Shown in pieces: positions 5,392 through 58,473 of a stretch of DNA of 64,000 nucleotides (position 1 is the stretch's first letter; the number at the start of each line of letters is the position of its first letter). A program made the translations under genes and the position numbers. Origin of the DNA: a virus; IMG/VR virus record IMGVR_UViG_3300003886_000001, positions 32,001 through 96,000 of that record; one strand, 5' to 3'. The notes below the pieces were generated by a model. The model had not been told where the DNA came from. It did not search any database and saw only the letters and a list, made by a program, of their open reading frames with translations.

Positions 5392-5458
5392 TTTTCTGTA
5401 AAAACACTTATACTACTCATACGTAACTATCCTAGACTAGGAACTAGGAGGAAGTAAA

Positions 5459-6733
5459 ATGGAACCTTTTAAAACTGGCCAGATATATAAGATGAACGAG
5501 GGGAAAGTTTGGGCGACCTTTCTTCTTTCTGATTCATTGATGTCCGGTGTTGATGAGAAAACGATGAACCAGATTCGTAATTCTATGCGATTGCCAGGAG
5601 TAAAGAGTGTTACTATTACCCCAGACGTTCACTTTGGGTATGGGGTGGCTATCGGTACTGTTGTTCATTCTGAAACTCACTTGTATCCAGACGTTGTAGG
5701 GGTTGACCCAGCTTGTAGTGTGTCATTGTCTCGTATCCATGGAGTTAATGGTCTCTCCAAGCTGAAAGAGAAAAAGGATGTCTTAAAAAGTATAAAGGAG
5801 CGGGTCAGTGTAGGTAGGGGGAGGGTAAACAAACAAGCTCCGCCTTTGACCATGAGGGGATTTAAACAGGTAATTGACGGATTCTTAACCCCAGCACTAA
5901 GCTGGTTGTCTTATAGAGAGGACAAGTTATGGAAGAGCGAAACTAGAGAATACCAACAAGTTGGGGATTTATTAGAGTTATTAATGACAGATACTATGCT
6001 AGGACAGGTAGGTAGTATCGGCTCAGGAAATCATTTTATAGAATTACAAGAAGATGAGGAAGGGTCGCTTTATGTAATGGCACACTTTGGTAGTAGGGGC
6101 ATAGGTGCTACCGGTGCTAAGTTATTAGAAGACATGGTAAGAGAGGAATTAAAGTCATGGGGAGTAACTACCGAGCTACTTTATATGCCTGCGGAAAGCA
6201 ACATTGGTAAACTATACAATGTTTTCCAACGGGCCATGCTAGAATGGTCAACCTATAACCATGAAATAGTACAGGAGGCGATTGAACAAGCTATCCGTGA
6301 GACATTCCCAGAGGCCCGTAGGGAGGCTATCGGGCATATACCGCATAACTTTATAGAAAGGAGGCTGGGATTATTTGTAGGCCGTAAAGGCGCCACTCCA
6401 GCATATGGTAAAGTTCCATTGTTAATCCCGGGGAGCATGGGTACAGCTAGTTATGTGCTTAGCCCGGGAGTAAAAGCCGCTAAATTGGGAGAGTCAGTTT
6501 CCCATGGTGCTGGACGGCTTTTTAGTCGTAGAGCCGCTAAAGCCACTCTAAACCAGAAAGAGGTTAACCAAGAGTTTAAAAATAATGGAATTATCGGAAA
6601 CTTTGAAGACGTTCCTTTGGACGAAGCTCCGGGGGCATATAAGGATATAGACGAAATAATTAAATCGTTGGTAAACTCAGAAGTTGCAGTTGTGGAAAAG
6701 AAATTAAAGCCAGTGATGGTAATAAAAGGGTAA
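5459..6733 (+). CDS. rtcB: RtcB-family 3'-phosphate RNA ligase
   Basis: PDVH, VDPAC, GSGNHFIE, HFGSRG, PHN, RKGATPA, PGSMG, SHGAGR and DEAPGAYK motifs. Confidence 0.95.
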   Translation: MEPFKTGQIYKMNEGKVWATFLLSDSLMSGVDEKTMNQIRNSMRLPGVKSVTITPDVHFGYGVAIGTVVHSETHLYPDVVGVDPACSVSLSRIHGVNGLSKLKEKKDVLKSIKERVSVGRGRVNKQAPPLTMRGFKQVIDGFLTPALSWLSYREDKLWKSETREYQQVGDLLELLMTDTMLGQVGSIGSGNHFIELQEDEEGSLYVMAHFGSRGIGATGAKLLEDMVREELKSWGVTTELLYMPAESNIGKLYNVFQRAMLEWSTYNHEIVQEAIEQAIRETFPEARREAIGHIPHNFIERRLGLFVGRKGATPAYGKVPLLIPGSMGTASYVLSPGVKAAKLGESVSHGAGRLFSRRAAKATLNQKEVNQEFKNNGIIGNFEDVPLDEAPGAYKDIDEIIKSLVNSEVAVVEKKLKPVMVIKG

Positions 6734-6781
6734 ATCTTATTTTGCCCACGAGGTTAGGAAACTAACAGAAATGAGATAAAA

Positions 6782-7210
6782 ATGAAAGGAATAGCAGCCC
6801 CAGAGCAGGAAAATCAAAAGATAGAAGGAATGTCTCCTGCTGAATTATCAGCATTTACAACGTTAATGAGTCTAGCTCCCGTTGATGAAGAGTCCAAATT
6901 ATCAATCCCCCCTTTGCTTGAGAATTATATCTCCAAAGGTATAGTTATTAGTCTTAAACCATATCCTTCACGTCACTACGCTAACTTATGGGAAGAGGTA
7001 CGCGCCGTTATTAATGAATGTCATCTAAGAGGAGGACATATTGATGGGCTTATTGAAAAGTTACCCCTCGCCTTTTATGATGGTGAGACATACTTAGGGT
7101 TTAAGAGGTATATGGAGGATATGAATAAGTGGAGCGATACTCTAGATAAAGAGATTTCTGTACAAATAAAGTGGGCACAGGAAGTGATGAATAAAATTAA
7201 GAGCTTATAA
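6782..7210 (+). CDS. hypothetical protein
   Basis: ORF within the operon. Confidence 0.6.
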   Translation: MKGIAAPEQENQKIEGMSPAELSAFTTLMSLAPVDEESKLSIPPLLENYISKGIVISLKPYPSRHYANLWEEVRAVINECHLRGGHIDGLIEKLPLAFYDGETYLGFKRYMEDMNKWSDTLDKEISVQIKWAQEVMNKIKSL

Positions 7211-7229
7211 CTGTGGTAGGAGTATAATT

Positions 7230-8006: not shown

Positions 8007-8060
8007 TCTCATCATTCTCATACACATCTTCTCTACTCTTAGTAGAGAAGAAAGGAATAT

Positions 8061-8528
8061 ATGTTAATTAGATTTCATAGTTTCACGGACTTAATTACAA
8101 ATTCAAGTTCTACAGTATACATTTATCTCACAGAGAAAACCGAGGAGGTTATTAAGGACTTGGTAAGGCTGCTGCTATCAAGGAATGGTAGCAATGAAAC
8201 CTTTGACTCACTTTTCTCTATTGAGCACCTAACGGGGGAAGGTACTCATGAATACGACTTCTATGAAAACATCTATGATATCGAAAGTATTGATGGAGAT
8301 TGGGAAGCATTAGAGAAGGCTAAAAACGAAGCCGAGGATAAACTCGCCTATCTTAAGAAGTATGCAGAAGAGCATGGACATTCGTCTTTTGAAGATGAAA
8401 ACTATCATGAATATGATTATGCTAGTACCTTAAAAATTACAGCTAAACATCCAAAAGACGCAGCTGCCGCCAAGATATTAAGTTCATTACGTAGTTTATT
8501 TGAATACGAAGCAGTGTTTGATGGTTAG
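8061..8528 (+). CDS. hypothetical protein (DLITNSSS motif), next to radical SAM gene
   Basis: N-terminal SFTDLITNSSS motif; overlaps the radical SAM gene. Confidence 0.65.
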   Translation: MLIRFHSFTDLITNSSSTVYIYLTEKTEEVIKDLVRLLLSRNGSNETFDSLFSIEHLTGEGTHEYDFYENIYDIESIDGDWEALEKAKNEAEDKLAYLKKYAEEHGHSSFEDENYHEYDYASTLKITAKHPKDAAAAKILSSLRSLFEYEAVFDG

Positions 8529-9429
8529 CCTAGAGGGGATGCGTATACGTAAGTCTATTGATGACAATTATAGTGCTTTTTTCACAGATGACGGTAAAAC
8601 ATATAGATTTAAATTAACTGATGCCCCCATGAAGGAATTAACATTTCCAGAGTTTTATGATGTAGCAATTAACACCTGGTGTGCTGGCGGATGTGGGTAT
8701 TGTTATGTAGGTGCCAAAGAGTCTGGTATGCATTTTCCCGGGGCTGTGGGGAACATAAAAAGAATCTTTGGGCATATGACTCTGAATGAACGGCCTTTTC
8801 AGGTGGCACTTGGCGGTGAGGGAGAACCTACCGCGCACCCAGACTTTCTAGAGGTCTTAGAAACCTTTAGAGGGCTAGGAATAGCGCCAAACTATACTAC
8901 TAATGGTATGCATTTAAGTACGGAGCTTATTGCTGCAACCAAAGAGTTTAATAGTGGGGTAGCTGTAAGCATGCATCCACAGTTAAGAACATATAGCGTT
9001 AATGCCATTAAAGAGTACTCCAAAGCAGGTATCAGATTAAACTTACACTTTGTGGTGTCTAATGCAAAAAGTATTGACCTATTATGGAAAGCGGTTGAAG
9101 AGTGGAATGATGTAGTTGAACACTTTGTAGTGCTTCCGTATATGAGTAATAGAGAGGCCCCATTCAAACGTGTTGACACAGACTATCTAGCGCGAACATT
9201 AGATTCTAGAGAGGATATCAGTAAAATAGCGTTCGGTTCTAATTTATATAAGTTTTTGAGTGTACGAGACTATCCGGTCAGCTTGTATGAGCCCGAAGCT
9301 ATGAGTAAATACTTGGTGTTAAGTGACCCAATTAAACTTTACTCCGATTCTCACAGTATGAAACCAGTGACCAAAGGGCCACTTTGGAGGTTGGTAAACA
9401 TTCTGTCTATGGAAGATAACGGTGTGTAA
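8500..9429 (+). CDS. radical SAM protein
   Basis: CxxxCxxC (CAGGCGYC), ALGGEGEP, NYTTNG. Confidence 0.92.
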   Translation: MNTKQCLMVSLEGMRIRKSIDDNYSAFFTDDGKTYRFKLTDAPMKELTFPEFYDVAINTWCAGGCGYCYVGAKESGMHFPGAVGNIKRIFGHMTLNERPFQVALGGEGEPTAHPDFLEVLETFRGLGIAPNYTTNGMHLSTELIAATKEFNSGVAVSMHPQLRTYSVNAIKEYSKAGIRLNLHFVVSNAKSIDLLWKAVEEWNDVVEHFVVLPYMSNREAPFKRVDTDYLARTLDSREDISKIAFGSNLYKFLSVRDYPVSLYEPEAMSKYLVLSDPIKLYSDSHSMKPVTKGPLWRLVNILSMEDNGV

Positions 9430-9850
9430 CCCGAGAGTTTCTTTACTAATAGCTAAAGAGGATGAAAACGGAAACCTACTGCTACTTCTTAGGAAAGAAG
9501 GTGATTCTTACCTTTTACCCAGCGTCTGCTCAGATTTAGGTGAATATACTGAGGCGGCCGCAAAGCGAATGTTATCAGAAATTACTAAAGACAATAACGA
9601 CGATTTATCTCTACTTGAGATAGTGGAGCATTTTGAAGATGATTGTTACATAGGGTTTTACTATTATGTTAGTGTAGCCGATAACGCAGTAGTACCACAA
9701 AACTATGTATGGAAAGAGGAACAGGAGGTTATTAGTCTTTTACAGGATGGAGTTTACCATACTGTAGAACTTGATTCAAGGCTTGACTCCAAGCAACGCC
9801 TATGCTATGATATAGAAAGGTATGGGGGTGACAAGGTTTCGACAGGGTAA
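9422..9850 (+). CDS. NUDIX-fold protein with degenerate Nudix box
   Basis: LLLLRK...LLPS...LGE...AAAKRMLSEIT resembles a Nudix box but lacks the canonical RE..EE. Confidence 0.55.
   Translation: MCNPRVSLLIAKEDENGNLLLLLRKEGDSYLLPSVCSDLGEYTEAAAKRMLSEITKDNNDDLSLLEIVEHFEDDCYIGFYYYVSVADNAVVPQNYVWKEEQEVISLLQDGVYHTVELDSRLDSKQRLCYDIERYGGDKVSTG
9783..9811 (+). promoter_or_regulatory. sigma70-type promoter for tmRNA
   Basis: TTGACT-17-TATGAT with TG extended -10, inside the NUDIX ORF. Confidence 0.8.
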
Positions 9851-10076
9851 AAAACAATTAACTAGCGTGCAGGGGTGGGCTGGCCCCTTAATCAAGCCCA
9901 AAATTAATAATTAACAACTATGCTATGCCACTCGCCGCTTAGAGCGAGAACCGCCCGCAGCTAGCGCACAATAGCTGTACGCTTTATAGATTTGAACAAA
10001 ACTTTTTGATACGCACGTACAGAAGGTTAGTTAGACGTTGCTCTGGACGCGGGTTCGACTCCCGCCGCCTCCACCA
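9824..10076 (+). ncRNA. ssrA: tmRNA (compact, 253 nt)
   Basis: 5' GGGGGTGACAAGGTTTCGAC; 3' GCGGGTTCGACTCCCGCCGCCTCCACCA; G3.U70 pair; internal frame ...INNYAMPLAA-stop (TAG at 9940-9942). Confidence 0.93.
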
Positions 10077-10170
10077 TCTGTTGTTGAAAAAAGATAAGGT
10101 ATTGTATTCTTGTGTGTCTAACACTTCTCATCAATGAGTACAGTACCATGAATCATAGATAGGAGTATAG

Positions 10171-12138
10171 GTGATTCCAACTCAGGAAAAGACTGTTACT
10201 AATGAGATTAAAGGTAGCTTGAGAAGCAAGCGTATGACCCTTGACCCTGATAGTATTACTCATATCATGGGTATTCTAACAGACTTATATAGCGACCCAG
10301 CTATGGCGGTTATCCGTGAATACACGTTAAACGCTATTGATTCTCATGCCGCTGCCGGAAAAGGAGATGTTCCTGTTACGATTGGGTTACCAACGGCGTT
10401 TAGTGATACCTTCGTTGTTAAAGACGAAGGTATTGGAATGGACGAGGAAGAGGTATTTAATACCTTTGGCAGCTACGGAGCTTCTACAAAACGAGAAAGT
10501 GATAACTATACGGGGCAGCTAGGGTTAGGGTGTAAGTCTGGCCTAACGTTGACGAACCAATTTTCGCTAGTAGCAATTAAAGATGGTATCAAATGTGCTT
10601 TTTCTGTCCATAAGGACGAATTTGGTGTACCTTGTATTACAAAGTTGTATCAGGGTTTAACAGACGCTCACAATGGCGTAGAGGTCTCAATAGCGATTAA
10701 AGACGTGGAGGAGTTTAAGAAAAGGGCGGCACGATTCTTCCCATTCGTTACCCCTATCCCTGTATTTCTAAACGAGTTTAGCGTACAAACAAAACCTATC
10801 TTGGAAATATCGCCATCTATCAAGATTGTTGATAGTACACAAGACTGTGTAGTAATGGGTAATGTACCTTACCCATTTGTACATGATAAGTTATTTAGGA
10901 CCCTGACGAGGCCCTCTATAGTTTTGTACGCAAAAATGGGAGAAGTAAACTTTACTCCAAGTAGGGAGAGTCTTCACTATACTGCGAAGACAAAGGATTT
11001 CTTGAATCGTAAATACGAAGAATTGGAAGATAAGTTAGCGTCTAAGATATCACAAGACTTAGACTTAGCCGACAACTATGCTGAGGCTTGCAAACTCTGT
11101 AGGGATAAGAAGTACTATGCATTATTGATAGACCTCTCCGCCATGAAAGTACCGATGTTTCATGGAGAGGAAGTCTCCTCTAGTTTGTATGCATTCTCAC
11201 CAATAAAGAGTTATTATTTGGATAACGGTAAGTTGAAATTTAAGCGTAAGGGTACTACATCCTTTTATACAGATAATTTAGGAATAACTGTCTTGATACA
11301 TGACAACCCTTATCTGACTTCAACTAACCGTAGAAAATTGAAGATATTTATGCTTGAGAAGGGGTTAAATGAAGTATATTATATTACCAATAGCCTAGAT
11401 AGCTATTTTAGTCCCATTGTTAGTACACAGATGAAGACTATCACCATAGAGGACTTAAAATATATAAAATTACCGTCACGAAGTGGTAAATGTGAGAGCA
11501 AATGGCCTCGACTTGAAGTGAAGCGTCATACCGCTTGGAGCCGTCAGGTCGAGTTTGTTATGGACACCGAGGCCGAAGTAAAGGCACGAAAAGGTGATAT
11601 TGTATTTCTATCAAGAGGTCCACTAAAAATAAATGCATATACTTTAACCTCTTTGTTCCCTGATACCTATTTTTATGCTGTACCGGCATCTCGCGCACCC
11701 TCATTTAGGCATCTCTCCCCCCGTGCCCGCTCTATTAACGAATTTTTGCTCAACCAGTTGATAAAAATTGAAAACTCTATGACAGATGCTCAGAAACTAC
11801 GTGTAGCCGGTATACCAAGCCAAGCCTTAATTAAGTTATCTCCAAATATCTTGTCTAGTGACCAAATACAAGATAAACAGTTGAGGGCGTTTGGGCAGAA
11901 GATAGTAGCAGTCGATGAGGCTGTCATAAAAATTCATAACGAGCCTTGGTCGACATTTAGAAGAATATGCACCACCTCTGGTCTTGCAGAACTGGTTATG
12001 GATATAGGTCAGGATATTAGAGAGTCTTTTATTAAGGAATCCGACGCTTTAGCTAAAAAGTATCCGCTACTGTTTGTTTCTCAAGACCGCACATTCACCC
12101 AATCCTATATAGACTATGTAAATGAAAGGAATTTATGA
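10171..12138 (+). CDS. rIIA: rIIA-like protein (GHKL ATPase N-terminus)
   Basis: LYSD..AVIREYTLNAIDSH, DEGIGM, STKRESD, GQLGLGCKS, FTPSRESLHY. Confidence 0.88.
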   Translation: MIPTQEKTVTNEIKGSLRSKRMTLDPDSITHIMGILTDLYSDPAMAVIREYTLNAIDSHAAAGKGDVPVTIGLPTAFSDTFVVKDEGIGMDEEEVFNTFGSYGASTKRESDNYTGQLGLGCKSGLTLTNQFSLVAIKDGIKCAFSVHKDEFGVPCITKLYQGLTDAHNGVEVSIAIKDVEEFKKRAARFFPFVTPIPVFLNEFSVQTKPILEISPSIKIVDSTQDCVVMGNVPYPFVHDKLFRTLTRPSIVLYAKMGEVNFTPSRESLHYTAKTKDFLNRKYEELEDKLASKISQDLDLADNYAEACKLCRDKKYYALLIDLSAMKVPMFHGEEVSSSLYAFSPIKSYYLDNGKLKFKRKGTTSFYTDNLGITVLIHDNPYLTSTNRRKLKIFMLEKGLNEVYYITNSLDSYFSPIVSTQMKTITIEDLKYIKLPSRSGKCESKWPRLEVKRHTAWSRQVEFVMDTEAEVKARKGDIVFLSRGPLKINAYTLTSLFPDTYFYAVPASRAPSFRHLSPRARSINEFLLNQLIKIENSMTDAQKLRVAGIPSQALIKLSPNILSSDQIQDKQLRAFGQKIVAVDEAVIKIHNEPWSTFRRICTTSGLAELVMDIGQDIRESFIKESDALAKKYPLLFVSQDRTFTQSYIDYVNERNL

Positions 12139-13217
12139 ATGTATCTTTTAATATTACTCATTCGGACACGGATGGTATACAAATAATAGTGTATATTGAT
12201 GGTACCGCGTACGTTGCCAGTGAGTCACATCTGTTGTTTAAGGATATTTTGAAAGCCTGTCGAGAGCTTGACTTTGAAAATCTGGCTCAGTTATTTGACG
12301 TAAAGGGGGTCCTTACCGAAACATTATCACAACTTAGCGAACGTGTAAGAATTAGTGAGACTACGCTATATTTTGATGGTGAGCCTATGTTTGGTAAATT
12401 AACTACTATTCTTGTGAATACGTATAGAGATGGAAGGGATTTTGTCCCGCTGCTTAACTTTTTAGAAAACCTTATGAATAATCCCAGTAGAGGCAGTAGA
12501 GAACAGCTGTATGGATTTCTAGAACACCACCATTTTTCAATTACATCTGATGGGCACTTTTTAGCCTATAAGGGAGTAAATAGCGATAGGCATTCTCTTC
12601 ATAACGGGTATGGTATCGTGGACGGAGTAATAACACATGGAACCTTACCAAATAAAGACGGTTCTATTATTGAAATGGGAAGGGACAGAGTCGTAGAAGA
12701 CCCTAACCAGGGATGTACAGTAGGACTCCATGTAGGCACCTATTTATATGCCAGTAGTTACGGATACGTGACCGTGCTGGTCAAGGTTAATCCACGAGAT
12801 GTAGTGTCAGTACCTATTGATTCAGACTATCAGAAGCTGAGAGTTACCAGATATAAAGTTTTACATGAGGTATCCGAAGAAGTACCTGATGATTATTATG
12901 AGGATACTATGCTAATTCCAGATGATGAGTATGATGATGCTGAGTTAATACCGGAGCTATCAGACGATAGAGTAGACGACTTATTAGTGGATATGGCTGT
13001 TTCAACGCTAGAAGAAGAAGCTTCAAACTATACTTATAAGGGACGTATGGCTGGTTCATACAAGCAGCTAGCGGAAAGATTAGGATTTAGTAGGGATGTA
13101 GCCGAGTATCTAGATAACTCTCATTCTGCTAATGCAGTTTACCGGTATCATGTAGATAGGTTAAGGGATGCCTATTTATCAGAAGGTGATGGTGATGAGG
13201 AAAATAACCCAACATGA
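12135..13217 (+). CDS. rIIB: rIIB-like protein
   Basis: FLENLMNNPS, FLAYKGV, CTVGLHVG, KVNPRDVVSVPIDSD.QKLRVTRY; directly follows rIIA. Confidence 0.88.
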   Translation: MNVSFNITHSDTDGIQIIVYIDGTAYVASESHLLFKDILKACRELDFENLAQLFDVKGVLTETLSQLSERVRISETTLYFDGEPMFGKLTTILVNTYRDGRDFVPLLNFLENLMNNPSRGSREQLYGFLEHHHFSITSDGHFLAYKGVNSDRHSLHNGYGIVDGVITHGTLPNKDGSIIEMGRDRVVEDPNQGCTVGLHVGTYLYASSYGYVTVLVKVNPRDVVSVPIDSDYQKLRVTRYKVLHEVSEEVPDDYYEDTMLIPDDEYDDAELIPELSDDRVDDLLVDMAVSTLEEEASNYTYKGRMAGSYKQLAERLGFSRDVAEYLDNSHSANAVYRYHVDRLRDAYLSEGDGDEENNPT

Positions 13218-14974: not shown

Positions 14975-15240
14975 CTGTAGATAAACTTAAATCGCTTTTA
15001 CAAATTATAGAAAAGGAGTATCCTGATGTTTATAATTGGGATACAATTGATGAGCTACAGCTATCACTAGACGAAGCAGAAGACAGGGAACAGCTTAAAC
15101 GCTCGGACTTTAAGATGGAAACTCCGGAGGGGAATAAGTCTGTTTTGAGTTTGGCTCTTGCCATCTTTGATTATGCCCAAGACACCGGACTGGTTTATTG
15201 GGAAGTAGATGAACTAATTGGAGAATTATTTAATGTCTAA
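14968..15240 (+). CDS. hypothetical protein
   Basis: Coupled ORF. Confidence 0.55.
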   Translation: MVTVDKLKSLLQIIEKEYPDVYNWDTIDELQLSLDEAEDREQLKRSDFKMETPEGNKSVLSLALAIFDYAQDTGLVYWEVDELIGELFNV

Positions 15241-15274
15241 TACTTCTCATGTAGCTGTAAAGTAAGATTAGGGC

Positions 15275-17327: not shown

Positions 17328-17366
17328 ATTTTAATCTTCCTCATGATTGTACGAGCTACAATGTAT

Positions 17367-18955: not shown

Positions 18956-19035
18956 AGTGGTGTATACCCTCCGTCTGATACACGGTAGAAAGGTTACTTG
19001 GTTCCAAGTTGGTTCGATTCCAACCACCACTACCA
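18956..19035 (+). tRNA. atypical tRNA-Ile(GAT) lacking a canonical D arm
   Basis: Perfect acceptor AGTGGTG/CACCACT + A-CCA, perfect T arm, CCGT-CTGATAC-ACGG; 8-nt 5' linker and 22-nt variable region. Confidence 0.7.
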
Positions 19036-19070
19036 CATATTTCTCATAAAAGTTTGGTCTATGATAAGGT

Positions 19071-25683: not shown

Positions 25684-25896
25684 ACTGTTCCTCCACTTTC
25701 TATTATATTACCATCATACATGAGAAACATGAGTTCTCATACTTCTCATTAAAGTATGGGGTATCCTTGTTTTGTAAGTAGGGAGGTTAATGTAACGCTT
25801 CCCGGAGGTATGGGAGGCACCCCGTTAGAAGCCTCCTCCCCTGAGGTGTCTCCCTAGGATAGGGCACCTCGGGGATTCCTTTAGGAGGAGAGATTT

Positions 25897-27232: not shown

Positions 27233-27444
27233 GTCTTTATATTACCTCGTCTCTTTATGAGAAGGATGACCAAATATGGTCAAAACCTTGTCAAACTGGC
27301 AATGCTCCTCCATTTCCTTTACCTCTAGTCTAGTAGGGCTTTCATAGATGGCTAATTGCTTGCCCGGCCGGGAAGGGACCAGGTAAATCACAAAGTCCCA
27401 TTCTGGGTCAGATACTTTAGTAACAAGTTGTGGTTGTCCGTATG

Positions 27445-29352: not shown

Positions 29353-29392
29353 ATCTAAATCCTAGCATAACTACATGAGAGCCTCCTGAGGA

Positions 29393-33327: not shown

Positions 33328-33472
33328 CTTTATCTATCAACCTCTCTAGTCTCAAGCCTTCTTTAAGCACCTGTCGAGCCTTTCCTCGGACCTCTTGCAA
33401 AAGGGCCATGACCCGCTTTTTTCCGTAGTCTTGTCCAAACTTCCTTTTATGTGTCTTTCCCATGTCCTTATC

Positions 33473-34147
33473 CTACTTGTCCTGACGATGAGAAAGATGT
33501 GAAGTTACACGTAGTCTCCCGCGACCGTGGGCCTTGAACCCAACCGTTAGGGAACGATTTGGCTTGAAGCAGAGGCGGCATTTATCGCAGGTCATGCCAA
33601 CGGTCTGGTTCGGACATACTACCACGTCACCGAAACGCTTCCCTTTAATATCATATGGCAACACTATGACGGTATCCCAACCTGCTGCACGAGCTTCCTT
33701 TACCTCTTCCGGTTGCTCGCAGGAAGCGCTTAATGTCAAGTTTTCGGGGAACACAAACCGCTTACGGTCAATGACCCGCCATGCATGAGTGTACCCATAC
33801 ATCTTTACGTCGGGGCGCTCTTTGGCCCCGAGGATGATAGCGTCAAGGTAGTCTACGTCTAGGTCGCCATCCGCCATAACATCGCCGGATACATGTAGCC
33901 GAAGGGCGGCCCCGTGGGGAATCCTCTTCAATTCCCGGAGAAAGACTTTACCGTCTTCCGTAGAGTAAGTGCCTATACTCTGTAGTCTTACATTGCCAAA
34001 TTGCGCATAGCAGCCATTGTTCAACAGGCTACAATTAGTGGGGCAAGACGTACCAACTTCACGATAGGTAGCGTAGAATGGGAGATGCTTGTTGTTGCCT
34101 ACAAGTTTTCTGTTAGCTGTAGGCTTGAGTGTTACTCGGAGTGCCAT
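33473..34147 (-). CDS. Gp88-like Cys-rich protein
   Basis: SCPTNC...CYA, LRLHVSGD, YGYTH, CPNQ..TCDKCRLC. Confidence 0.75.
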   Translation of the reverse strand: MALRVTLKPTANRKLVGNNKHLPFYATYREVGTSCPTNCSLLNNGCYAQFGNVRLQSIGTYSTEDGKVFLRELKRIPHGAALRLHVSGDVMADGDLDVDYLDAIILGAKERPDVKMYGYTHAWRVIDRKRFVFPENLTLSASCEQPEEVKEARAAGWDTVIVLPYDIKGKRFGDVVVCPNQTVGMTCDKCRLCFKPNRSLTVGFKAHGRGRLRVTSHLSHRQDK

Positions 34148-34223
34148 GGATAAATAATAGCGTTAAATAGTCTGAGAAGCATGAGACTAATCTTTCTCAT
34201 TAACTATCAGACTAAAATAGAGC

Positions 34224-34715
34224 ATGGAGCAGAAAAAGGCCGTCACCCTTGCCCGGAAGTTAATGAACCAACATGGTCTAGATACATTAACGCTCAAGAT
34301 AAGTAGTAGTAAACGAACCTTGGGAACCTATCAGTACAGAACAAGCGCACGTGGCGTTCACGAACCCGTGCAGATTAAGCTGTCAAAATATTGGTTAAAA
34401 ATATTGGATGAGGACCAAGTACGGGACACAGTGTTGCATGAGATTGCCCATGCGCTGACCCCTGACCATGGCCATGACCATGTCTGGCAACAGATGGCCC
34501 GGAAACTAGGAGTTTCTCCATCTCGTACGGCCCACGATGTTCCGGTAGAAGTACAGAAACGCCTTCGCCAGAGCGTGGCAAAATACGTCGCCATCTGTGA
34601 GACCGACCCATCCCATCGGTATTATTTTAATCGTATGGGGAAATTATGGTCCGCCGGAGCATACCGCTGTCACTGCGGAGGCCGTTATCATGTTTCTCAT
34701 AATTCTTCGGGATAA
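34224..34715 (+). CDS. SprT-like zinc metalloprotease
   Basis: VLHEIAHAL, HGHDHVWQ, C-terminal Cys cluster. Confidence 0.85.
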   Translation: MEQKKAVTLARKLMNQHGLDTLTLKISSSKRTLGTYQYRTSARGVHEPVQIKLSKYWLKILDEDQVRDTVLHEIAHALTPDHGHDHVWQQMARKLGVSPSRTAHDVPVEVQKRLRQSVAKYVAICETDPSHRYYFNRMGKLWSAGAYRCHCGGRYHVSHNSSG

Positions 34716-34840
34716 GATAAAGACATGGAACAGACACTCAAGCGCTTGGCTCGTGACTATTATAGGCACAATTGCCCCCTCCCTGATTACCTACTGGCTG
34801 TAATCACCCGTTCTCCTCTTCCTTACGGTTTTTCCTCCCC

Positions 34841-35212
34841 ATGACTTCTATAACGTTTCTTGGAGAGGTACCTAAACCTGCTCGTCAAATTGGATTAGAT
34901 GTGTTATCCGGAGAGTTATGGGTAACCTGGAACCAGAGGAAGACATCGACTCAAAAGGAATGCTTACGTAAGGCCGGGATAGAGCCGCATAAGTTTGACT
35001 GGGCAATCCTGTGGTGGGGAATTGAAGAAGTATTACCCCCAAAGGAATTGAAGACTTTACTCCGGTCGATTAAGCCACACATACAGATTCTGTTGGATAA
35101 TTATAAGCTTGTAAAAGATGCGGCTGGAAACAATAAAGTTGACCTTCCAGACGGCCCCGCGAGCGCCGCTTACTACGCCATCTGTGACCTATGCGATAGC
35201 ACCTACTTATAA
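34841..35212 (+). CDS. LDxxTG..W..PFAQ paralog family member
   Basis: IGLDVLSGEL, WWGI, LLRSIKPHIQILLD. Confidence 0.7.
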   Translation: MTSITFLGEVPKPARQIGLDVLSGELWVTWNQRKTSTQKECLRKAGIEPHKFDWAILWWGIEEVLPPKELKTLLRSIKPHIQILLDNYKLVKDAAGNNKVDLPDGPASAAYYAICDLCDSTYL

Positions 35213-35257
35213 TTCTCATCTTTAACGGTGCTATTGTATGGGTAGGAGGAAAATACC

Positions 35258-40077: not shown

Positions 40078-40242
40078 ACGTTATTTTACGTCCCTTCTGT
40101 ATGAGAAGTATTATCCTTTTCAAGGCATAAGTAAATCTGTAGATGCCATGTACCAAGGATGATGCGTCTATCATGCGGGCTGGCACATAGCAGTGCTTTT
40201 CCCAGTGCTACCAGGAAGGCATCCTCAGACTTCATCATAGCC

Positions 40243-40921: not shown

Positions 40922-40938
40922 GCCATATAATACCCTGT

Positions 40939-41223
40939 TTATAAATGAGAAGGATGAGCTGATAGGTTAAAGTCCCGTAGCACACCGTCAAACTCAAACA
41001 GGTTGAAGTAGTCATCTTCCATTCTCAGAGCCGTCTTAGAGTCCACAACAGCCATCGCCTCTTTGAGGGTGGTTACCCCTGTCAGGTCCTTATCTTCCAA
41101 GCCTCTAGCCGCCCCTTTGTACACAAAGAATTCAGTATCGGAGTGATACTCTAGACGGGAGGACACGCCGGGCTCCGGATAAGCTACTTCAACTTGCATG
41201 ATTAAATCCATACTACTCTTCAC
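40939..41223 (-). CDS. hypothetical protein
   Basis: ORF. Confidence 0.5.
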   Translation of the reverse strand: MKSSMDLIMQVEVAYPEPGVSSRLEYHSDTEFFVYKGAARGLEDKDLTGVTTLKEAMAVVDSKTALRMEDDYFNLFEFDGVLRDFNLSAHPSHL

Positions 41224-41465: not shown

Positions 41466-41641
41466 CCCCCGGTGAAGCTGTAATGGGGGCCGCTGCGGAG
41501 TAGTGCCCCGGGTACCTCGGGTTGTGCCTTCCGCGTATACCTTAGGCACGTATGTAGTATAGGCTGATACTAAGTGAAGAGTATGAGGGCAGCGACCCCC
41601 CGGTGAAGCTATAATGGGTGGGGGCCGCTGCGGAGTAGTGC
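41466..41641 (-). repeat. two copies of a 41-45 bp GC-rich element (41466-41506, 41597-41641)
   Basis: CCCCCGGTGAAGCTRTAATGGG(TGG)GGGCCGCTGCGGAGTAGTGC on the + strand. Confidence 0.85.
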
Positions 41642-41722
41642 AAATACCCGGATATATCAATATGGTGGGTATTGCAGCATATCGTGTTGCCCAGGCTCTG
41701 CCTAGGTAGCTATACTATAGGC

Positions 41723-42007
41723 CTAGACAGAATGAGAAGTATTAAAGTCACAGAGGTTGCTAATAGCTTGGCTAGCTTCTTCCCTCATCTGGTATTCCAC
41801 AGTGCCCTTTGGGTGGTAGTAGTAGTCCAGGAGAATTTGGGCAAATGGAAGAATAGCCCCCAGTATGGCCAGGTCGTCCGTATCGCGCATAATTGCCCAT
41901 CCTACGGTGTTGCCTGCTGGTATCGTGCGATTGATACACAAGTCGCCCGTTTCCAAATTAAGGCATATACTCCGAGACTCCATGGACGGGGTTATTTTAA
42001 CTTCCAT
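41723..42007 (-). CDS. LDxxTG..W..PFAQ paralog family member
   Basis: ICLNLETGDL, GWAI, ILPFAQILLD, AISNLC. Confidence 0.75.
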   Translation of the reverse strand: MEVKITPSMESRSICLNLETGDLCINRTIPAGNTVGWAIMRDTDDLAILGAILPFAQILLDYYYHPKGTVEYQMREEASQAISNLCDFNTSHSV

Positions 42008-42133
42008 AGTCTTCCTTTCTCAAAATGAGACACAGCACCCACGTTAGGCGCTGTGCTCTACGGCATCCCCCCGTCGTGCTCTTATCCTATAGTGGGACCC
42101 GCACTGTCTAGGCGTACGTCCTAGGTAGCTATA

Positions 42134-42421
42134 CTATAGGCCGAGTGCGCATGAGAATGATGAGTCGCAGAGGTGGATAATTGCCCGGCTAGCGCCCATG
42201 TATGCCTGATACGCCAAGCCGTCTCTTGGAACCTCAAGGCAGTCCAGGACAATCTTGGCAAACGGGGCAACGAGGCGGAGTAGCTCGTCGGTGTCCGTAG
42301 TTGCACTGATTGACCACCCGGTGACGTGCTTGCCCCGCACCGTGTAGTCCACGTACAAGTCTCCTGTCTTATGGTCCAGGCACAGCTTGTCGCCCTTTGA
42401 CGAGATTACTTTAACGTCCAC
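42134..42421 (-). CDS. LDxxTG..W..PFAQ paralog family member
   Basis: LCLDHKTGDL, GWSI, VAPFAKIVLD, AIIHLC. Confidence 0.75.
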   Translation of the reverse strand: MDVKVISSKGDKLCLDHKTGDLYVDYTVRGKHVTGWSISATTDTDELLRLVAPFAKIVLDCLEVPRDGLAYQAYMGASRAIIHLCDSSFSCALGL

Positions 42422-42721: not shown

Positions 42722-42874
42722 AGCTAGAGTATAGGATAAGGACCTGTGAGAAACATTAGGACCAAAGACGCCCCCTCTGCTTAGAAGGGGCGCTTATGAA
42801 TGAGCGTCCAGCTTGTGTGTTTATTCGGAAGCTCCCCTTATACTACATCTTCCCCAGGTTAGAAAGATGAACAC

Positions 42875-43759: not shown

Positions 43760-43787
43760 TGTGAGTATCTCCTTTTCTTATACTAGG

Positions 43788-44129
43788 CTAGTTTTCCATG
43801 AGAATTATGGAAAACGGCACTCGAAACACTATGATGCCATTATCCTTGAGAAGAGTTACTAGGTTAGCAGCGCCGACGGGATTCATAGAATGCACAATGA
43901 AGACTGTATCCTGTAACAGAGAAAAGTCTACTCCTCTCAGGCTGCTATAGACGTCCTCACTTCCCAGGTCATGGTCAAGGAACACGACGTCAGCCTCACC
44001 TAGCAGTCCCGTATCAAAGACGGTAGAATGCACAACGTCGCCTCTGATACCGTGACGGCGCGCCCAAGCACGAATAGTGCCTACCCGGCAAGTATCATCG
44101 TCAATAATCAAAGCCTTTGACATACTCAT
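43788..44129 (-). CDS. stand-alone receiver-fold protein (cyclic-phosphate-processing REC-like)
   Basis: LIIDDD, FLDHDLG, VHSMNPVGAANL. Confidence 0.75.
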   Translation of the reverse strand: MSMSKALIIDDDTCRVGTIRAWARRHGIRGDVVHSTVFDTGLLGEADVVFLDHDLGSEDVYSSLRGVDFSLLQDTVFIVHSMNPVGAANLVTLLKDNGIIVFRVPFSIILMEN

Positions 44130-44553: not shown

Positions 44554-44591
44554 GCTTCATGGTATGCCACCTTAGCATGAGAAAGATTAGA

Positions 44592-46688: not shown

Positions 46689-46690
46689 TT

Positions 46691-47032: not shown

Positions 47033-47037
47033 AACTG

Positions 47038-47065
47038 ATTATAGCACTCTGACAGCCAGTGTCAA
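47038..47065 (-). promoter_or_regulatory. sigma70-type promoter (leaderless)
   Basis: TTGACA-16-TATAAT, ATG 5 nt downstream. Confidence 0.75.
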
Positions 47066-47861: not shown

Positions 47862-47940
47862 ACCAGACTATACCTGGCCCTTCTATGAGAATCATTAGAA
47901 AAGACGCCCCTTGTGTAAGGGGCGCCTGTCTTGTGTGCGG

Positions 47941-49420: not shown

Positions 49421-49441
49421 GAGCCTGCACCTTAATCATTC

Positions 49442-49940
49442 TCTCATGTTCTACTCACTAATCTTTCTCTCATACTAAGGCCATACATCCACATATACAT
49501 AGCTTAATCCTCTCATAAAGACAGGTTATTCCACATCTACCTCTCATGTACACAGTATTTTCTCATGATTCTTTCATGATTCTTTCATAATGTACTCATA
49601 CTCGATGATTAACATGAGAAGATGAGAGCTTTTTCACATTTAGAGCTTATTTTTCTCTCATATTCTCATCTGCGGCCCGTCTTTTTCTCATGATAATTTG
49701 GTGATAATGCATATTACCTTCATGTTTCACATACTTCTGGCCCATATTATCATCAGAATCTCATGAGACTCTCATATATCCCTAGTTTCTCTAATTCTTC
49801 TCTCATACTTTCCTCATCTTAGACTCACGTACTTAGTATACTCTCATGTAAATGGTTATATTCTCATGTTTCACATGAAATTATCATCGTTTTCTCATAA
49901 CCCCTGGGGTTTGAAAGCAAATCGGAGTCCCTGTTCTCAT
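49442..49940. repeat. dense TCTCAT hexamer array
   Basis: About 15 forward and 3 reverse copies counted by eye in ~500 bp of non-coding DNA. Confidence 0.9.
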
Positions 49941-50004
49941 AATCGGCCGCCCTCCCCCTTTATCACCCCTAGGGGTATTTTTCAAACAAAACGGACTAAG
50001 CCCT

Positions 50005-50250: not shown

Positions 50251-50308
50251 ATGAAAAACATGGTGAGTAAAAAATCATAAAATGAAAATCCCCCTTTCGG
50301 GGGAATTG

Positions 50309-52381: not shown

Positions 52382-52589
52382 ATCCCCTCCTTTCAGGTAG
52401 TATATGATATGTGGAGATTAGAATGATGAGAATTAGTCAGACTCTTTAGCGTATAATAGCTCTACAAGCCTGTGCTCCACTATCTTTTCGAACTCTATCG
52501 CTTCTTCGTCTTCCTCAGGAATTGTATCTATTTCTTCTGACATAGTTTTCGCTCCTACTTAGTATAGCACACTTAAAGAGAGACATAAA

Positions 52590-56558: not shown

Positions 56559-57382
56559 TTGTTCCCGATTTTATTTATAAAAAGGCCGAATGGGAGGATT
56601 TACCAACCCAAGCCAACTCCAATTACCCTAAGATTGTCATCGAAGACACCGGGGCAAGAGTAGTAAATTCGGGGTCAGTCACATTAACTACTGGGGACAA
56701 GTTCTTTTTGCAGCCACCAGACAGTAATTTTGGAACTGTATACAACTATTTGACCTATTCTAATAAGGATGGTGCATATGTGATTCGATATGTAAATAGT
56801 GGAGAGCCATGGTCATCTCCAACTAGCTCAAATGGCCAACAACTATCGTTTACCTACGGTACATCAATGCCTTTTACCGGGGTTACTCAACTCGATTACT
56901 TGGCAAACGTTGTAAGTGATTTCTGGTTTAGTGCAGGTAGTACGGTAGTAACTACGGACGGAACTCATATCTTTATCTTTTCCAATCTCAACAATTCCTC
57001 TCCAGTATATGCTCTAAATTTAGATGGTACTATTGCTTGGAAAAGAACATTACCTACCTCAGTTATCTCTGTCTTTTCTATTAAGGACGGGGTCTTTTAT
57101 ATTGATACCTCAGTCACCAATACCCCTAATTCTGGGGACATGGCTATGAATCTAGTTAAACTAAATACCACGGATGGTACTGACCATTATACTATGAATG
57201 TAACTACCCTACCCTCTGGAACTACAATAGACGAGAATACAAGGTCGATGTTTTACTATTTTGCAGATGGAACTATTATTTTGTACGCAAATACTATCGG
57301 CCACTTTGCCGTCGATGTAGTAAACAAACTAGTAACTAATTTAACCTCATCATCTACTTCGGATTTACTTGCTATAGTATAG
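56555..57382 (+). CDS. beta-rich putative virion protein (propeller-like)
   Basis: YALNLDGTIAWK and similar repeats. Confidence 0.6.
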   Translation: MIVPDFIYKKAEWEDLPTQANSNYPKIVIEDTGARVVNSGSVTLTTGDKFFLQPPDSNFGTVYNYLTYSNKDGAYVIRYVNSGEPWSSPTSSNGQQLSFTYGTSMPFTGVTQLDYLANVVSDFWFSAGSTVVTTDGTHIFIFSNLNNSSPVYALNLDGTIAWKRTLPTSVISVFSIKDGVFYIDTSVTNTPNSGDMAMNLVKLNTTDGTDHYTMNVTTLPSGTTIDENTRSMFYYFADGTIILYANTIGHFAVDVVNKLVTNLTSSSTSDLLAIV

Positions 57383-57392
57383 GAGTAAAGAT

Positions 57393-58145
57393 ATGGCACA
57401 AACATTTGGGATACAAATACTAACTCTTGCACCAAATTTAGTTAATATACAACATAATAAGACTACTACCTATCTCTTAGGAGCTTGCGGAGCTGCTTCC
57501 TCAAGCTCTGGCGTAGCTCAGGGGGACCCCATGATAGAGTCTATTTCAACTAATGCCCCGTATACCCGTAATTGGTTTAAGTCGATGCTGTCGTACAACT
57601 TTTACACACTACACAATGCTGCATATGATGGTACAAATCTATATTATGTCTATACTAACTCATCAACCTATGCAACCATGTTCCACGCAATTGACGGGGC
57701 TACAGGTAATGATGTTTACGCCCCAGTACAGCTGTCTACTGGGGATGTAATGGGGGCGTTCTCTACAAAGAGTGGTGTTTTTATTGTATACGATGATAGT
57801 GCGTCTACTCCCTCATTTAAATCTATTTCATTACTTACTGGGGCTATAACTACAGGTCTTTCTATCCCTTCAGCTAATTCTAACGCTTGGTGGTGGTATG
57901 GAAATCCTATATTTACTGGAAATGATACTTTTGTACAATTATACTATGACACTACGAGTATTAGGTGCGCGATTTTAGATAAAACAGCGTCTGGAGTTAC
58001 TATTCCAATTAAAGTAAATGGGACGCTCGTCCCTCCTCCTACACAACACCCTACTTTTGGGTATGCGGTATCTCCGGTAGGGACAAAATCTTTGTATGCT
58101 GTTAATACAGAGGCTTCTGAAGTAGCTAAGTTTACTATTCCGTAA
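57393..58145 (+). CDS. beta-rich putative virion protein (propeller-like)
   Basis: HAIDGATGNDVY; Ser/Thr rich. Confidence 0.6.
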   Translation: MAQTFGIQILTLAPNLVNIQHNKTTTYLLGACGAASSSSGVAQGDPMIESISTNAPYTRNWFKSMLSYNFYTLHNAAYDGTNLYYVYTNSSTYATMFHAIDGATGNDVYAPVQLSTGDVMGAFSTKSGVFIVYDDSASTPSFKSISLLTGAITTGLSIPSANSNAWWWYGNPIFTGNDTFVQLYYDTTSIRCAILDKTASGVTIPIKVNGTLVPPPTQHPTFGYAVSPVGTKSLYAVNTEASEVAKFTIP

Positions 58146-58443
58146 GTTCTGATTCCTTTTCCCATCCTGCTAGGATGTCCTCTAAAACCCATACCTCATA
58201 ACCTCCATTAATAGTTACGAGATATTCATGGTCTATGACATCCCATTTAGTACCTTGTATAGGTAGTTGTCTAGTCTCTTTTACCCCATTAATACGGCAG
58301 CGATGAAAGCTGTACGCGCATACAGGAACAAGCCAACGAGTATTTCGAAATACTGCATACCCAGTATTCTGAACACCTGTATTAACGTCTACCTCATGTA
58401 CACCTATTTTAACGTTTACCATTTCTCCAAGTTTATATCTCAT
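58135..58443 (-). CDS. hypothetical protein (leaderless)
   Basis: ATG 5 nt after TACGTT of a CTCTCAT-N12 promoter. Confidence 0.6.
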   Translation of the reverse strand: MRYKLGEMVNVKIGVHEVDVNTGVQNTGYAVFRNTRWLVPVCAYSFHRCRINGVKETRQLPIQGTKWDVIDHEYLVTINGGYEVWVLEDILAGWEKESELTE

Positions 58444-58473
58444 AAGCTAACGTACACCCAGAGAGAATGAGAG

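Follow-up and report, generated by a model that had tools for sequence, protein, structure and literature searches.

The middle promoters of phage T4 carry a sigma70-type −10 element and no −35 hexamer, and a box of 7–9 bp lies about 12 bp upstream with its centre near −30. This is the MotA box TGCTTtA, or (a/t)(a/t)(a/t)TGCTT(t/c)A in its longer form, and the system also involves appropriation of sigma by AsiA. The promoters drive early and middle functions, including rII-type genes, and coexist with canonical early promoters. In the Pho box, the −35 element gives way to direct heptamer repeats (CTGTCAT in E. coli) some 10 bp upstream of the −10, with the activator in contact with region 4 of sigma. 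Sites for host response regulators precede a few phage genes, and cyanophage genes are driven by host PhoB. At the lambda CII promoters pRE, pI and paQ, direct repeats straddle a poor −35 from about −38 to −25, with CII on the face opposite the polymerase. To our knowledge, regulated promoter classes are understood for only a handful of model phages, almost none of them outside Proteobacteria and Bacillota. For the Thermus phage phiYS40, Sevostyanova and co-workers are said to have described in 2007 a middle/late class with an extended −10 and no upstream box. This phage relies on the host polymerase throughout and makes mostly leaderless transcripts, and a transcription factor of its own has not been found (PMC4124052; bioRxiv 10.64898/2026.04.20.719267). 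The −10-only leaderless promoters of Deinococcus-Thermus consist of TANNNT 5–7 nt before the start codon and are read by RpoD (PMC12340547).

We analysed a 64,000-nucleotide stretch (the window; positions 32,001 to 96,000 of IMG/VR record IMGVR_UViG_3300003886_000001) in which two putative promoter classes occur: canonical TTGACA-N17-TAnnnT, here P1, and TTCTCAT-N12-TAnnnT, here P2. The downstream half of P2 has the same form as the −10-only promoters of Deinococcus-Thermus, to which P2 adds a strictly positioned upstream element that is absent from ordinary host promoters. A likeness to the geometry of the MotA box, with an unrelated sequence, had been pointed out in a preliminary description of the window, and both points hold: the spacing peak lies at exactly 12 bp, and the consensus, CTMAT-N2-TTCTCAT, is not that of the MotA box. 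Unlike T4 middle promoters, P2 has a second direct half-site 9 bp upstream, about half of its predicted mRNAs are leaderless, the probable host belongs to another phylum and possesses a version of the element, and neither a MotA C-terminal domain nor AsiA was found in the phages. PhoB/OmpR-type sites share with P2 the tandem direct repeats in place of −35; the E. coli Pho heptamer matches TTCTCAT at 5 of 7 positions, and the host element fronts an OmpR-family operon. While the period of these sites is 11 bp (usually 10–11, which keeps the repeats on one face of the helix), it is 9 bp in P2 promoters, with several 11-bp steps in the arrays. Phages driven by host PhoB have one or two such promoters, whereas P2 occurs tens of times per phage, and no Trans_reg_C regulator was found in these phages. 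The CII system differs in its repeats, TTGC-N6-TTGC with a 10-bp period, is confined to three promoters and serves the lysogeny decision.

The TTCTCAT-N12-TAnnnT element and its sites

The preliminary description had proposed a class of about 21 promoters with the heptamer, or a variant of it, exactly 12 bp upstream of a −10-like hexamer. This enrichment was borne out. The window contains 19 exact TTCTCAT-N12-TANNNT sites, where 100 dinucleotide-preserving shuffles gave 0.16 on average and 1 at most; in the whole record (119,665 bp) there are 21, against 1 for the reversed pattern. A scan of heptamer-to-−10 spacers from 4 to 25 bp gave a single peak at 12 bp (21 sites; 0–6 at any other spacing). 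When all hexamers at all distances upstream of TANNNT were counted without bias, TTCTCA at 13 bp ranked first in the source genome and in two relatives, above TTGACA at 17 bp.

Alignment of the sites extends the element to CTMAT-N2-TTCTCAT-N12-TAnnnT, that is, two direct half-sites with a 9-bp period, the upstream one, CT(C/A)AT, lying 9 bp before the heptamer. At 17 bp there is no TTGACA-like hexamer, the columns reading A-T-M-n-T-T. The −10 hexamers are weak and varied, and an A/T three bases 3' of the heptamer is conserved in the phage sites; the flanks are otherwise unrelated and conservation is confined to the motif columns. With 15 specified positions and at most two mismatches, 33 sites were found in the record against 1 in reversed controls, and 30 of the 33 fall inside the window. 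The P2 sites along the window, with near-misses, weak matches and an array of half-sites, are as follows (SD, Shine-Dalgarno; G1 and G2, related phages).

58..90, +, near-miss P2, TTCTCAT-tc-TTCTCAT with 11-bp spacer and TAGAAT; ATG of 97-330 lies 6 nt downstream
3386..3417, +, P2, TTCTCAC variant; before DNA ligase 3444-4529 with SD leader; P2 site kept at the G2 orthologue
5407..5438, +, P2, TACTCAT variant; before RtcB 5459-6733 with SD leader
8008..8039, +, P2, exact; before 8061-8528 and radical-SAM gene 8500-9429
10118..10149, +, P2; before rIIA-like GHKL ATPase 10171-12138 and rIIB-like 12135-13217
13120..13151, +, P2, TGCTAAT variant; before 13168-13560; perfect copy at the G2 orthologue
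15237..15268, +, P2, exact; leaderless ATG 15275
17331..17362, +, doubtful P2-like, TCCTCAT; directly before tRNA-Asn 17367
19034..19065, +, P2; before 19071-19310 and RNA ligase 19310-20248
25702..25733, −, P2 with perfect TATAAT; half of a back-to-back pair; SD leader to 25504-25683
25736..25767, +, P2; divergent partner of 25702..25733; 129-nt leader to 25897-26196
27239..27270, −, P2; leaderless ATG of 26870-27232
29359..29390, −, near-miss P2, CTCTCAT with 10-bp spacer and TAGGAT; leaderless ATG 29352 of SNF2 helicase
33470..33501, −, P2; leaderless ATG of 33317-33463
34154..34185, −, P2, TTCTCAG variant; leaderless ATG of 33473-34147 (DUF7227); half of a back-to-back pair
34187..34218, +, P2; divergent partner of 34154..34185; leaderless ATG 34224
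34687..34718, +, P2; leaderless ATG 34725
35206..35237, +, P2; before 35258-35566 with SD leader
40083..40114, −, P2; leaderless ATG of 39790-40077
40927..40958, −, P2; leaderless ATG of 40706-40921; perfect copy at the G2 orthologue
41556..41587, −, weak P2-like, TCTTCAC, three mismatches; before a short non-coding unit
41714..41745, −, P2; before a non-coding unit of ~100 nt ending in a GC hairpin
42133..42164, −, P2; 125-nt leader to 41723-42007
42728..42759, −, P2, TTCTCAC variant; leaderless ATG of 42425-42721
43780..43811, −, P2; before 43502-43759 with SD leader
44559..44590, −, P2; leaderless ATG of 44101-44553; kept in G1 and G2
47867..47898, −, P2; leaderless ATG of 47685-47861
49431..49940, +, non-coding TCTCAT array; 15 half-sites forward and 3 reverse, nearly all lacking a −10 partner
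52399..52430, −, P2, TTCTAAT variant; before 52058-52381 with SD leader
58449..58480, −, P2, CTCTCAT variant; leaderless ATG of 58135-58443
60308..60339, +, P2; within the last part of 59937-60386, ahead of 60383-60724 and DNA polymerase A 60721-62829; G2 retains it

Every coordinate given earlier was recovered as described. This includes the variants TACTCAT (5414), TTCTCAG (34172), TCTTCAC (41574), TTCTCAC (42746), TTCTAAT (52417) and CTCTCAT (58467), as well as both near-misses, with an 11-bp spacer at 67 and a 10-bp spacer at 29375. That list was nevertheless incomplete: the exact sites at 27257-27263(−), 33488-33494(−), 40945-40951(−) and 60315(+) had been overlooked, as had the variants at 3393 and 13127 and the second upstream half-site CT(C/A)AT.

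A co-oriented ORF starts 3–130 nt downstream of 27 of the 30 window sites, in two tight geometries. At least 13 sites, about half, have an ATG 5–6 nt after the −10, in agreement with the leaderless mRNAs proposed before; some 11 others have a 16–26-nt leader with a GGAGG-type Shine-Dalgarno. The TANNNT 5–7 nt upstream of the start codon that marks leaderless genes in Deinococcus-Thermus is thus also found in P2, and the relatives give the same histogram. The genes behind P2 include rIIA/rIIB-like genes, DNA and RNA ligases, RtcB, an SNF2 helicase and a polymerase operon. The sequence evidence makes it very likely that P2 is a real promoter class, and it supports the earlier view that this second class combines a −10 of sigma70 type with a box where the −35 would lie. 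About 30 transcription units of the window would then start from a promoter type not previously described, whose upstream boxes are probably an activator-type element.

Related phages and the host element

P2 is common to three related IMG/VR phages of 190–202 kb (G1, G2 and G3), with the same heptamer, spacing and 9-bp tandem. Pairs of CTMAT with a 9-bp period number 20, 15, 34 and 13 in the four phages (controls: 3, 5, 1 and 2), 11 bp being the second peak. A P2 site is kept at 13 of 17 G2 orthologues with unrelated spacers, and over the more than 100 sites of the four diverged phages the distance to the −10 does not vary by a single base pair, whereas the spacer is unconstrained in sequence. 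The ~500-bp TCTCAT array has a syntenic counterpart with 23 copies in G2. The nearest cultured relative is phiYS40 (PolA 36% identity); no TTCTCAT-N12-TANNNT site was found in it or in three phiYS40-like contigs. As PolA is closest to the Thermus phages phiYS40 and TMA and RtcB to Trueperaceae and Deinococcales, the P2 phages appear to be a clade of ~200-kb phiYS40-related phages whose host is probably a member of the Deinococcota (Deinococcus-Thermus).

P2 had been labelled phage-specific, and this label is not supported in that form. The same heptamer, 12-bp distance, TAnnnT and leaderless start are conserved in Deinococcota, where 141 of 151 genomes contain the N12 pattern (243 matches against about 60 for the reversed control, roughly 4-fold); a Bacillota control gave no enrichment (299 against about 246). 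The recurrent host site, TTCTCATGAGAA-N7-TAnnnT-N6-ATG, is leaderless and precedes an operon of a 225-aa OmpR-family regulator and a HAMP-HisKA kinase. Deinococcus, Deinococcales MAGs and Thermus-sized genomes retain this site, and the operon is 85–88% identical across the phylum; in one Trueperaceae genome there was no box before the regulator gene. The heptamer at N12 also fronts a few other host genes. Sites at N13 precede unrelated housekeeping genes, so the host 'regulon' is not coherent. Host sites have one heptamer, often within the palindrome TTCTCATGAGAA, whereas phage sites are direct repeats, and the binding mode or the reader may therefore differ. Host genomes show hardly any excess of the tandem form (22 against about 10); only this two-box form and the high density of sites are phage-specific.

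Possible readers of the TCTCAT boxes

The earlier remark that no activator or sigma factor was recognised extends to the whole record and three near-complete relatives. Sigma70_r2, r4, r4_2, Trans_reg_C, GerE, MotCF and AsiA domains were not found in the four phage genomes; MotCF and AsiA (PF09158 and PF09010) had no match at E<=1 in the four phages and two phiYS40-like records. Some 70 phage proteins passed through Pfam or PHROGs yielded no transcription factor. Neither OmpR-type nor LuxR-type domains turned up in the four phages, and the family searches and these scans gave no winged-helix domain. Just one early-region protein is common to all four phages, and its DUF4258/RelE-like fold is not a DNA-binding one.

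Our best explanation, in which we place roughly even confidence, is that P2 promoters are activator-dependent sigmaA promoters, with a host factor favoured. Host RNA polymerase with its primary sigma (sigmaA) would read the TAnnnT −10, since P1 of the same phage shares the −10-to-ATG geometry, which is also established for Deinococcus-Thermus (PMC12340547; bioRxiv 10.64898/2026.04.20.719267). Transcription is predicted to start 6–7 nt downstream of the −10, often on the A of the start codon, giving a leaderless mRNA. Two direct TCT(C/A)AT half-sites, at about −38 to −34 and −31 to −25, would replace the −35 hexamer and bind a sequence-specific activator that docks on polymerase in fixed register, like MotA, lambda CII or PhoB. 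As the host regulator promoter has the same box at the same distance, the phage may borrow a host factor, and host promoters with this element make a host-encoded reader at least as likely as a phage one. We lean, tentatively, towards a co-opted host factor over a phage factor, itself a plausible though less favoured choice. The best candidate is the phylum-wide OmpR-family response regulator, an identification that is possible but less likely than not. The 9-bp period is short for tandem OmpR-family sites (usually 10–11 bp). The 500-bp array may concentrate or titrate this regulator. What we infer are the transcription starts, activation rather than repression, and which factor acts and where it comes from.

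The boxes could instead be read by a novel-fold phage protein made early from TTGACA promoters. It might be an activator of the MotA type, alone or together with a sigma remodeller resembling AsiA, or else an initiator-like protein with the array among its targets. In that case P2 would be a middle class of the classical kind, and the host sites would be unrelated or the model mimicked by the phage protein. The 9-bp tandem, the density and the array are all phage-specific, the P2 genes have typical early and middle functions, P1-rich small-gene regions adjoin P2-rich ones, and the many conserved unannotated ORFs could hide a novel activator. This is a possible reading but less likely than not. 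The searches returned no sigma, MotA, AsiA, winged-helix or LuxR-type domain, the protein shared by all four early regions does not have a DNA-binding fold, and the heptamer, spacing and −10 of conserved host promoters would have to match by coincidence. Another view turns the element into an off switch. A TANNNT −10 alone suffices for transcription in D. radiodurans (PMC12340547), so the boxes could be operators for a host or phage repressor on −10-only promoters; they span −38 to −25, where a bound protein would block polymerase, and in the host the regulator operon is preceded by a palindromic site of the kind usual in operators. We consider this improbable, because a spacing exact to the base pair in more than 100 sites of four phages is needed for face-specific contact with polymerase and not for steric repression, and weak, varied −10s are what activator-dependent promoters are expected to have.

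That the phylum's primary sigma itself recognises TTCTCA as an alternative element at 13 bp, with no extra factor, is very improbable. TTCTCA does match TTGACA at 4 of 6 positions, the element stands before unrelated host genes at N12–13, and no factor was found, but a 13-bp spacer is well below the 16–18 bp that regions 4 and 2 can span, and in D. radiodurans the benefit of a −35 box was seen at 17 bp but not at 22 bp (PMC12340547). A separate DNA-binding protein is suggested by the second half-site and by the array, which lacks −10 partners. The view that the sites are no promoters at all, but copies of a dispersed repeat or a side effect of bias in coding or composition, could draw on TTCTCAT as the reverse complement of ATGAGAA, which is slightly over-represented in coding DNA (299 against 246 in Bacillota). 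It is close to refuted by the excess over shuffles and the single spacing peak, by intergenic sites co-oriented with the downstream gene at a fixed distance from the start codon, and by unrelated flanks around conserved motif columns.

Returning to the activator-dependent reading with a host factor, it is possible, though less likely than not, that this phage clade wired most early and middle transcription (30–60 promoters per genome) to a host two-component response regulator, near-invariant across Deinococcota, whose autoregulatory box was copied as a tandem high-affinity form and which a 17–23-copy array recruits or sequesters. Phage expression would then read the host signalling state directly, without a phage-encoded transcription factor. 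If the reader is the host response regulator, the boxes would define where the regulator of an uncharacterised two-component system, present across the phylum, binds and how it controls itself, and the phages would be making unusually extensive use of a host signalling protein as their main activator. The cis-element itself is sharply defined (15 informative positions and exact spacing) in four uncultured phages of ~200 kb and is matched by a host element. In its compact form it may serve as a regulated leaderless promoter part in Deinococcus or Thermus engineering.

Canonical promoters and genome layout

Exact TTGACA-N16-18-TANNNT sites number 15 against 2 in the control. In line with the preliminary description, these P1 promoters stand before the three tRNA blocks and several genes at 45–49 kb. 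The two temporal classes suggested there are hypothetical, and P1 promoters also precede some structural genes. More than half of the phage ORFs carry no annotation. In each of the relatives too, P1-rich small-gene regions adjoin P2-rich regions, and hardly any promoter of either class lies in the structural modules.

Anatomy and conservation of the P2 element

The P2 promoter class joins the heptamer TTCTCAT, here called the box, to a -10-like hexamer. Within the window TTCTCAT-N12-TANNNT has 19 matches, where shuffled sequence would yield 0.16, and the whole record (G000) has 21. When the spacer was scanned from 4 to 25 bp, 21 matches fell at 12 bp and 0–6 at any other length. The enrichment of the 12-bp spacing over shuffled DNA is thus borne out, and the sites listed in the preliminary description were all confirmed as described, with several additional ones found. 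An unbiased count of hexamers by distance upstream of all TANNNT ranked TTCTCA at 13 bp first in G000 and in the related IMG/VR phages G001 and G002, where TTGACA at 17 bp came second; the order is swapped in a third relative, G003.

Alignment of the 21 exact sites revealed a second block, CT(C/A)AT, at -7 to -3 relative to the heptamer, which is a direct repeat of the box core with a 9-bp period. The other conserved columns are an A/T three bases past the heptamer, a G/C right before the -10 and purines after it. Taking the hexamer as the -10, the two boxes lie at about -38 to -34 and -31 to -25, and the columns at the position of a -35 hexamer bear no likeness to TTGACA. The full element CTMAT-N2-TTCTCAT-N12-TANNNT, scored over 15 specified positions, has 11, 13 and 9 sites in the record with 0, 1 and 2 mismatches, compared with 0, 0 and 1 in reversed controls. 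CTMAT repeated at a 9-bp period was counted 20, 15, 34 and 13 times in the four phages versus 3, 5, 1 and 2 times in controls.

The class is shared by the relatives. G001, G002 and G003 carry 19, 30 and 8 exact P2 sites (controls 0–4), and with up to two mismatches G001 has 40 and G002 has 62 (controls 1 and 5), again with a lone peak at 12 bp. No TTCTCAT-N12-TANNNT site was found in the Thermus phage phiYS40 or in three phiYS40-like records, and a pattern scan across IMG/VR contigs gave single chance matches only, among the matches listed. For 17 sites of G000 the downstream gene has an orthologue in G002, and 13 of these orthologues have a P2-type site (up to three mismatches) in the same place, such as the DNA ligase, the 13168 gene, the 40706 gene and the gene preceding the polymerase. 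As these sites are kept although their spacer sequences are unrelated, this is the pattern expected if P2 is a selected cis-element and not a dispersed repeat.

Genes behind the promoters and the likely host

Among the 30 window sites with up to two mismatches, 27 are followed within 130 nt by the start of a co-oriented ORF. An ATG lies 5–6 nt past the -10 hexamer at at least 13 sites, while at about 11 an ATG or GTG lies 16–26 nt past it, behind a GGAGG-type ribosome-binding site. Two back-to-back pairs of sites serve divergent genes (25.70–25.77 kb and 34.15–34.22 kb), and a few P2 sites precede non-coding units or long leaders (41.4–42.2 kb and 25.74 kb). The canonical TTGACA-N16-18-TANNNT promoters of this phage (P1) show the same 5–6-nt geometry to the start codon. 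Experiments have established this geometry as the start mode of RpoD-dependent leaderless genes, both in D. radiodurans and T. thermophilus themselves (PMC12340547) and in Thermus phages (bioRxiv 10.64898/2026.04.20.719267). Since P1 shares it and it matches the published Deinococcus and Thermus RpoD geometry, the downstream half of P2 is, in our reading, an ordinary primary-sigma -10. At the level of sequence, the interpretation of the P2 sites as promoters is well supported, and we rate P2 as a regulated phage promoter class with a putative activator site in place of the -35.

P1 has 15 exact sites versus 2 in controls. It lies in front of the three tRNA blocks and the tmRNA, and also of leaderless small genes in a GC-rich module at 45–49 kb and some structural-region genes. 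The complete relatives have small-gene regions rich in P1 beside P2-rich regions with genes of nucleic-acid metabolism, and hardly any P1 or P2 site occurs in their long structural modules, an arrangement that fits a predicted early, middle and late scheme. A 113-aa protein, alone among those of the early region, is conserved in all four phages; its gene (46691–47032, minus strand) lies behind a perfect TTGACA-N16-TATAAT leaderless promoter. The protein was rejected as an activator, having instead a DUF4258/RelE-ParE-like fold (Atlas), which suggests a putative RNase-type host shut-off function.

The following features were noted beside these promoters:
9783, plus strand: P1-type promoter of the tmRNA, TTGACT-N17-TATGAT
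9824–10076, plus strand: tmRNA of just 253 nt (Rfam RF00023, 124.6 bits), overlooked by ARAGORN
10171–13217, plus strand: GHKL-ATPase protein and a match to PHROG "RIIB lysis inhibitor", an rIIA/rIIB-like pair behind a P2 promoter
18047–18138 and 18956–19032, plus strand: two further weak tRNA-like Rfam matches (32.9 and 29.3 bits), not called by ARAGORN
40000–48000, minus strand: module of small genes with a GC content of 50–53% (about 40% in the remaining record) and differing codon usage, in which a simple codon-based gene caller overlooks most genes
41400–41750, minus strand: two to three tandem non-coding units of about 100 nt, each with a P2-type promoter (TATAGT/TATACT)

The T4 rIIB gene has a MotA-dependent promoter. 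The units at 41400–41750 have similar 5' sequences and a gcggccccc...gggggtcgc hairpin at the end, and are possibly small RNAs.

The record is linear (119,665 bp), with an estimated completeness of 72% (CheckV), and the window covers its positions 32001–96000. The window holds 32 tRNA genes and a tmRNA, and encodes DNA polymerase A, an SNF2 helicase, RtcB, DNA and RNA ligases, a radical-SAM protein, the rIIA/rIIB-like pair and a portal gene. Among cultured phages, the closest polymerases A are those of the Thermus phages phiYS40 and TMA (36% identity). Three uncultured relatives in IMG/VR are nearer, G001 (194 kb), G002 (202 kb) and G003 (190 kb), with polymerases 56–70% identical to that of G000; the gene order of G002 is largely syntenic with G000, but reversed. 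A megablast of one window gene against the phage collection returned no matches. Among cellular proteins, those most similar to the phage RtcB come from Trueperaceae and Deinococcales genomes (41–45%), which, together with the leaderless gene starts, points to a probable Deinococcota host.

The TCTCAT array

A non-coding cluster at 49431–49940 contains 15 forward and 3 reverse copies of TCTCAT in about 500 bp, where 0.5 per 500 bp are expected, and no credible ORF was found in it. The syntenic array in G002 comprises 23 copies. Steps of 9 bp and 11 bp recur inside the arrays, and in both phages a short conserved block follows the array, beyond which lies an A-rich region containing direct repeats of its own. 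Judging by the array, the half-site would be bound independently of a -10. The array may recruit, store or titrate the factor, or may be part of an origin; against the origin, DnaA boxes are not clustered there. The A-rich non-coding stretch directly to the right of the array (49960–50300) holds a 32-nt unit twice and aatctgggaagg three times, in the same layout in G002.

Candidate readers of the boxes

TTCTCAT-N12-TANNNT is present in 141 of 151 Deinococcota genomes, with 243 matches versus about 60, by our count, for the reversed pattern. In 41 Bacillota genomes, taken as a control, the figures are 299 and about 246, and no site is recurrent. The excess in Deinococcota consists largely of orthologous, conserved sites. 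The commonest of them, TTCTCATGAGAA followed by 7 variable bases, TAnnnT, 6 nt and ATG, precedes a 225-aa OmpR-family response regulator and then a HAMP-HisKA-HATPase kinase. TTCTCATGAGAA is a perfectly conserved palindrome 7 bp upstream of the -10 of this leaderless operon (L129:2001-2031 and its Deinococcota orthologues) and likely an undescribed autoregulatory site of a phylum-wide two-component system, whose operon would probably be autoregulated. The regulator, present in 7 of 7 genomes probed, is 85–88% identical across Deinococcus-type, Trueperaceae/Deinococcales and Thermus-sized genomes. Thermus-sized genomes and two Deinococcales MAGs keep the box 12 bp from the -10 of this gene; in one Trueperaceae genome the regulator promoter lacks it. 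Conserved N12 sites were also seen before genes for a DUF5698/DUF2179 membrane protein, an LptF/G-like permease and small exported proteins. The N13 spacing, planned as a negative control in hosts, is not clean, as it contains conserved sites too, before a transaldolase-like protein, a cyclophilin, an acyl-CoA dehydrogenase, GroES and a predicted membrane protein that we take to be diadenylate-cyclase-like. The tandem two-box form was counted 22 times versus about 10 in the 151 genomes, with at most 2 in any genome.

The preliminary description had noticed no obvious activator or sigma factor in the window. In agreement with this, Sigma70 regions 2, 4 and 4_2, Trans_reg_C, GerE, MotA C-terminal and AsiA domains were not detected when all six frames of the four phages, of which three are 97–100% complete, were searched. 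About 70 proteins chosen for conservation or position behind P1 gave no transcription factor in Pfam or PHROGs. No phage transcription factor was found for phiYS40 in published work either (PMC4124052).

The base-exact spacing with a free spacer, the weak and varied -10s and the arrays without -10 partners argue for a separate DNA-binding protein, an activator like MotA, CII or PhoB, whose contact with the polymerase would have a fixed register. Direct recognition of the boxes by sigma, or repression acting on -10-only promoters, would be minor possibilities. As the same box stands in the same register before the conserved host two-component operon and the phages encode nothing recognisable, a co-opted host factor would be the more economical reader, to which we give slightly less than an even chance. 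Against it, host sites are single or palindromic whereas the phage boxes repeat directly at a 9-bp period, host sites lack the A/T that follows the heptamer, and the host genes behind the box are a heterogeneous set. The host regulator itself is the obvious candidate, given that members of the OmpR/PhoB family bind repeated heptamers in place of the -35, although we regard this identification as less likely than not. A phage protein that escaped recognition is a doubtful but real prospect, as the phages carry many ORFs without assigned function.

P2 resembles T4 middle promoters in geometry but differs in its box, and with no MotA C-terminal domain or AsiA in the phages it falls outside that class; in repeat structure it is closest to Pho-box and CII-type promoters. 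The phiYS40 promoter class, as Sevostyanova et al. reportedly described it in 2007, is an extended -10, from which P2 differs. In the literature searchable here we found no description of the P2 motif, full-text matches to TTCTCAT being primers, and nothing relevant to TTCTCATGAGAA or TCTCATGAGA. Its possible link to a host two-component system is unusual. The host regulator could not be equated with DrRRA (DR_2418): published putative DrRRA sites have no likeness to the box (PMC10778927), and DrRRA is reported missing from one Deinococcus species (PMC6300522), whereas the regulator was present in each of the seven genomes probed. The genes of Thermus DhqSR are not adjacent, and it is a different system.

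As for phage candidates, no family match was obtained for the gene that opens the polymerase operon (149 aa) or for the three small conserved genes at 59197–59847, and no DNA-binding domain was found in the early proteins at 44.8–49.4 kb. Weak Sigma70_r4_2 and GerE matches in the relatives were traced not to sigma factors but to an HNH homing endonuclease and to HTH proteins, the latter adjoining an intein-containing ORF that is presumably the large terminase. The G002 orthologue (L020:3941-7060, minus strand) of the 639-aa terminase candidate has 1039 aa with intein and LAGLIDADG domains. The polymerase A and RtcB genes of G002 are in two pieces each, so the relatives appear rich in inteins or homing elements.
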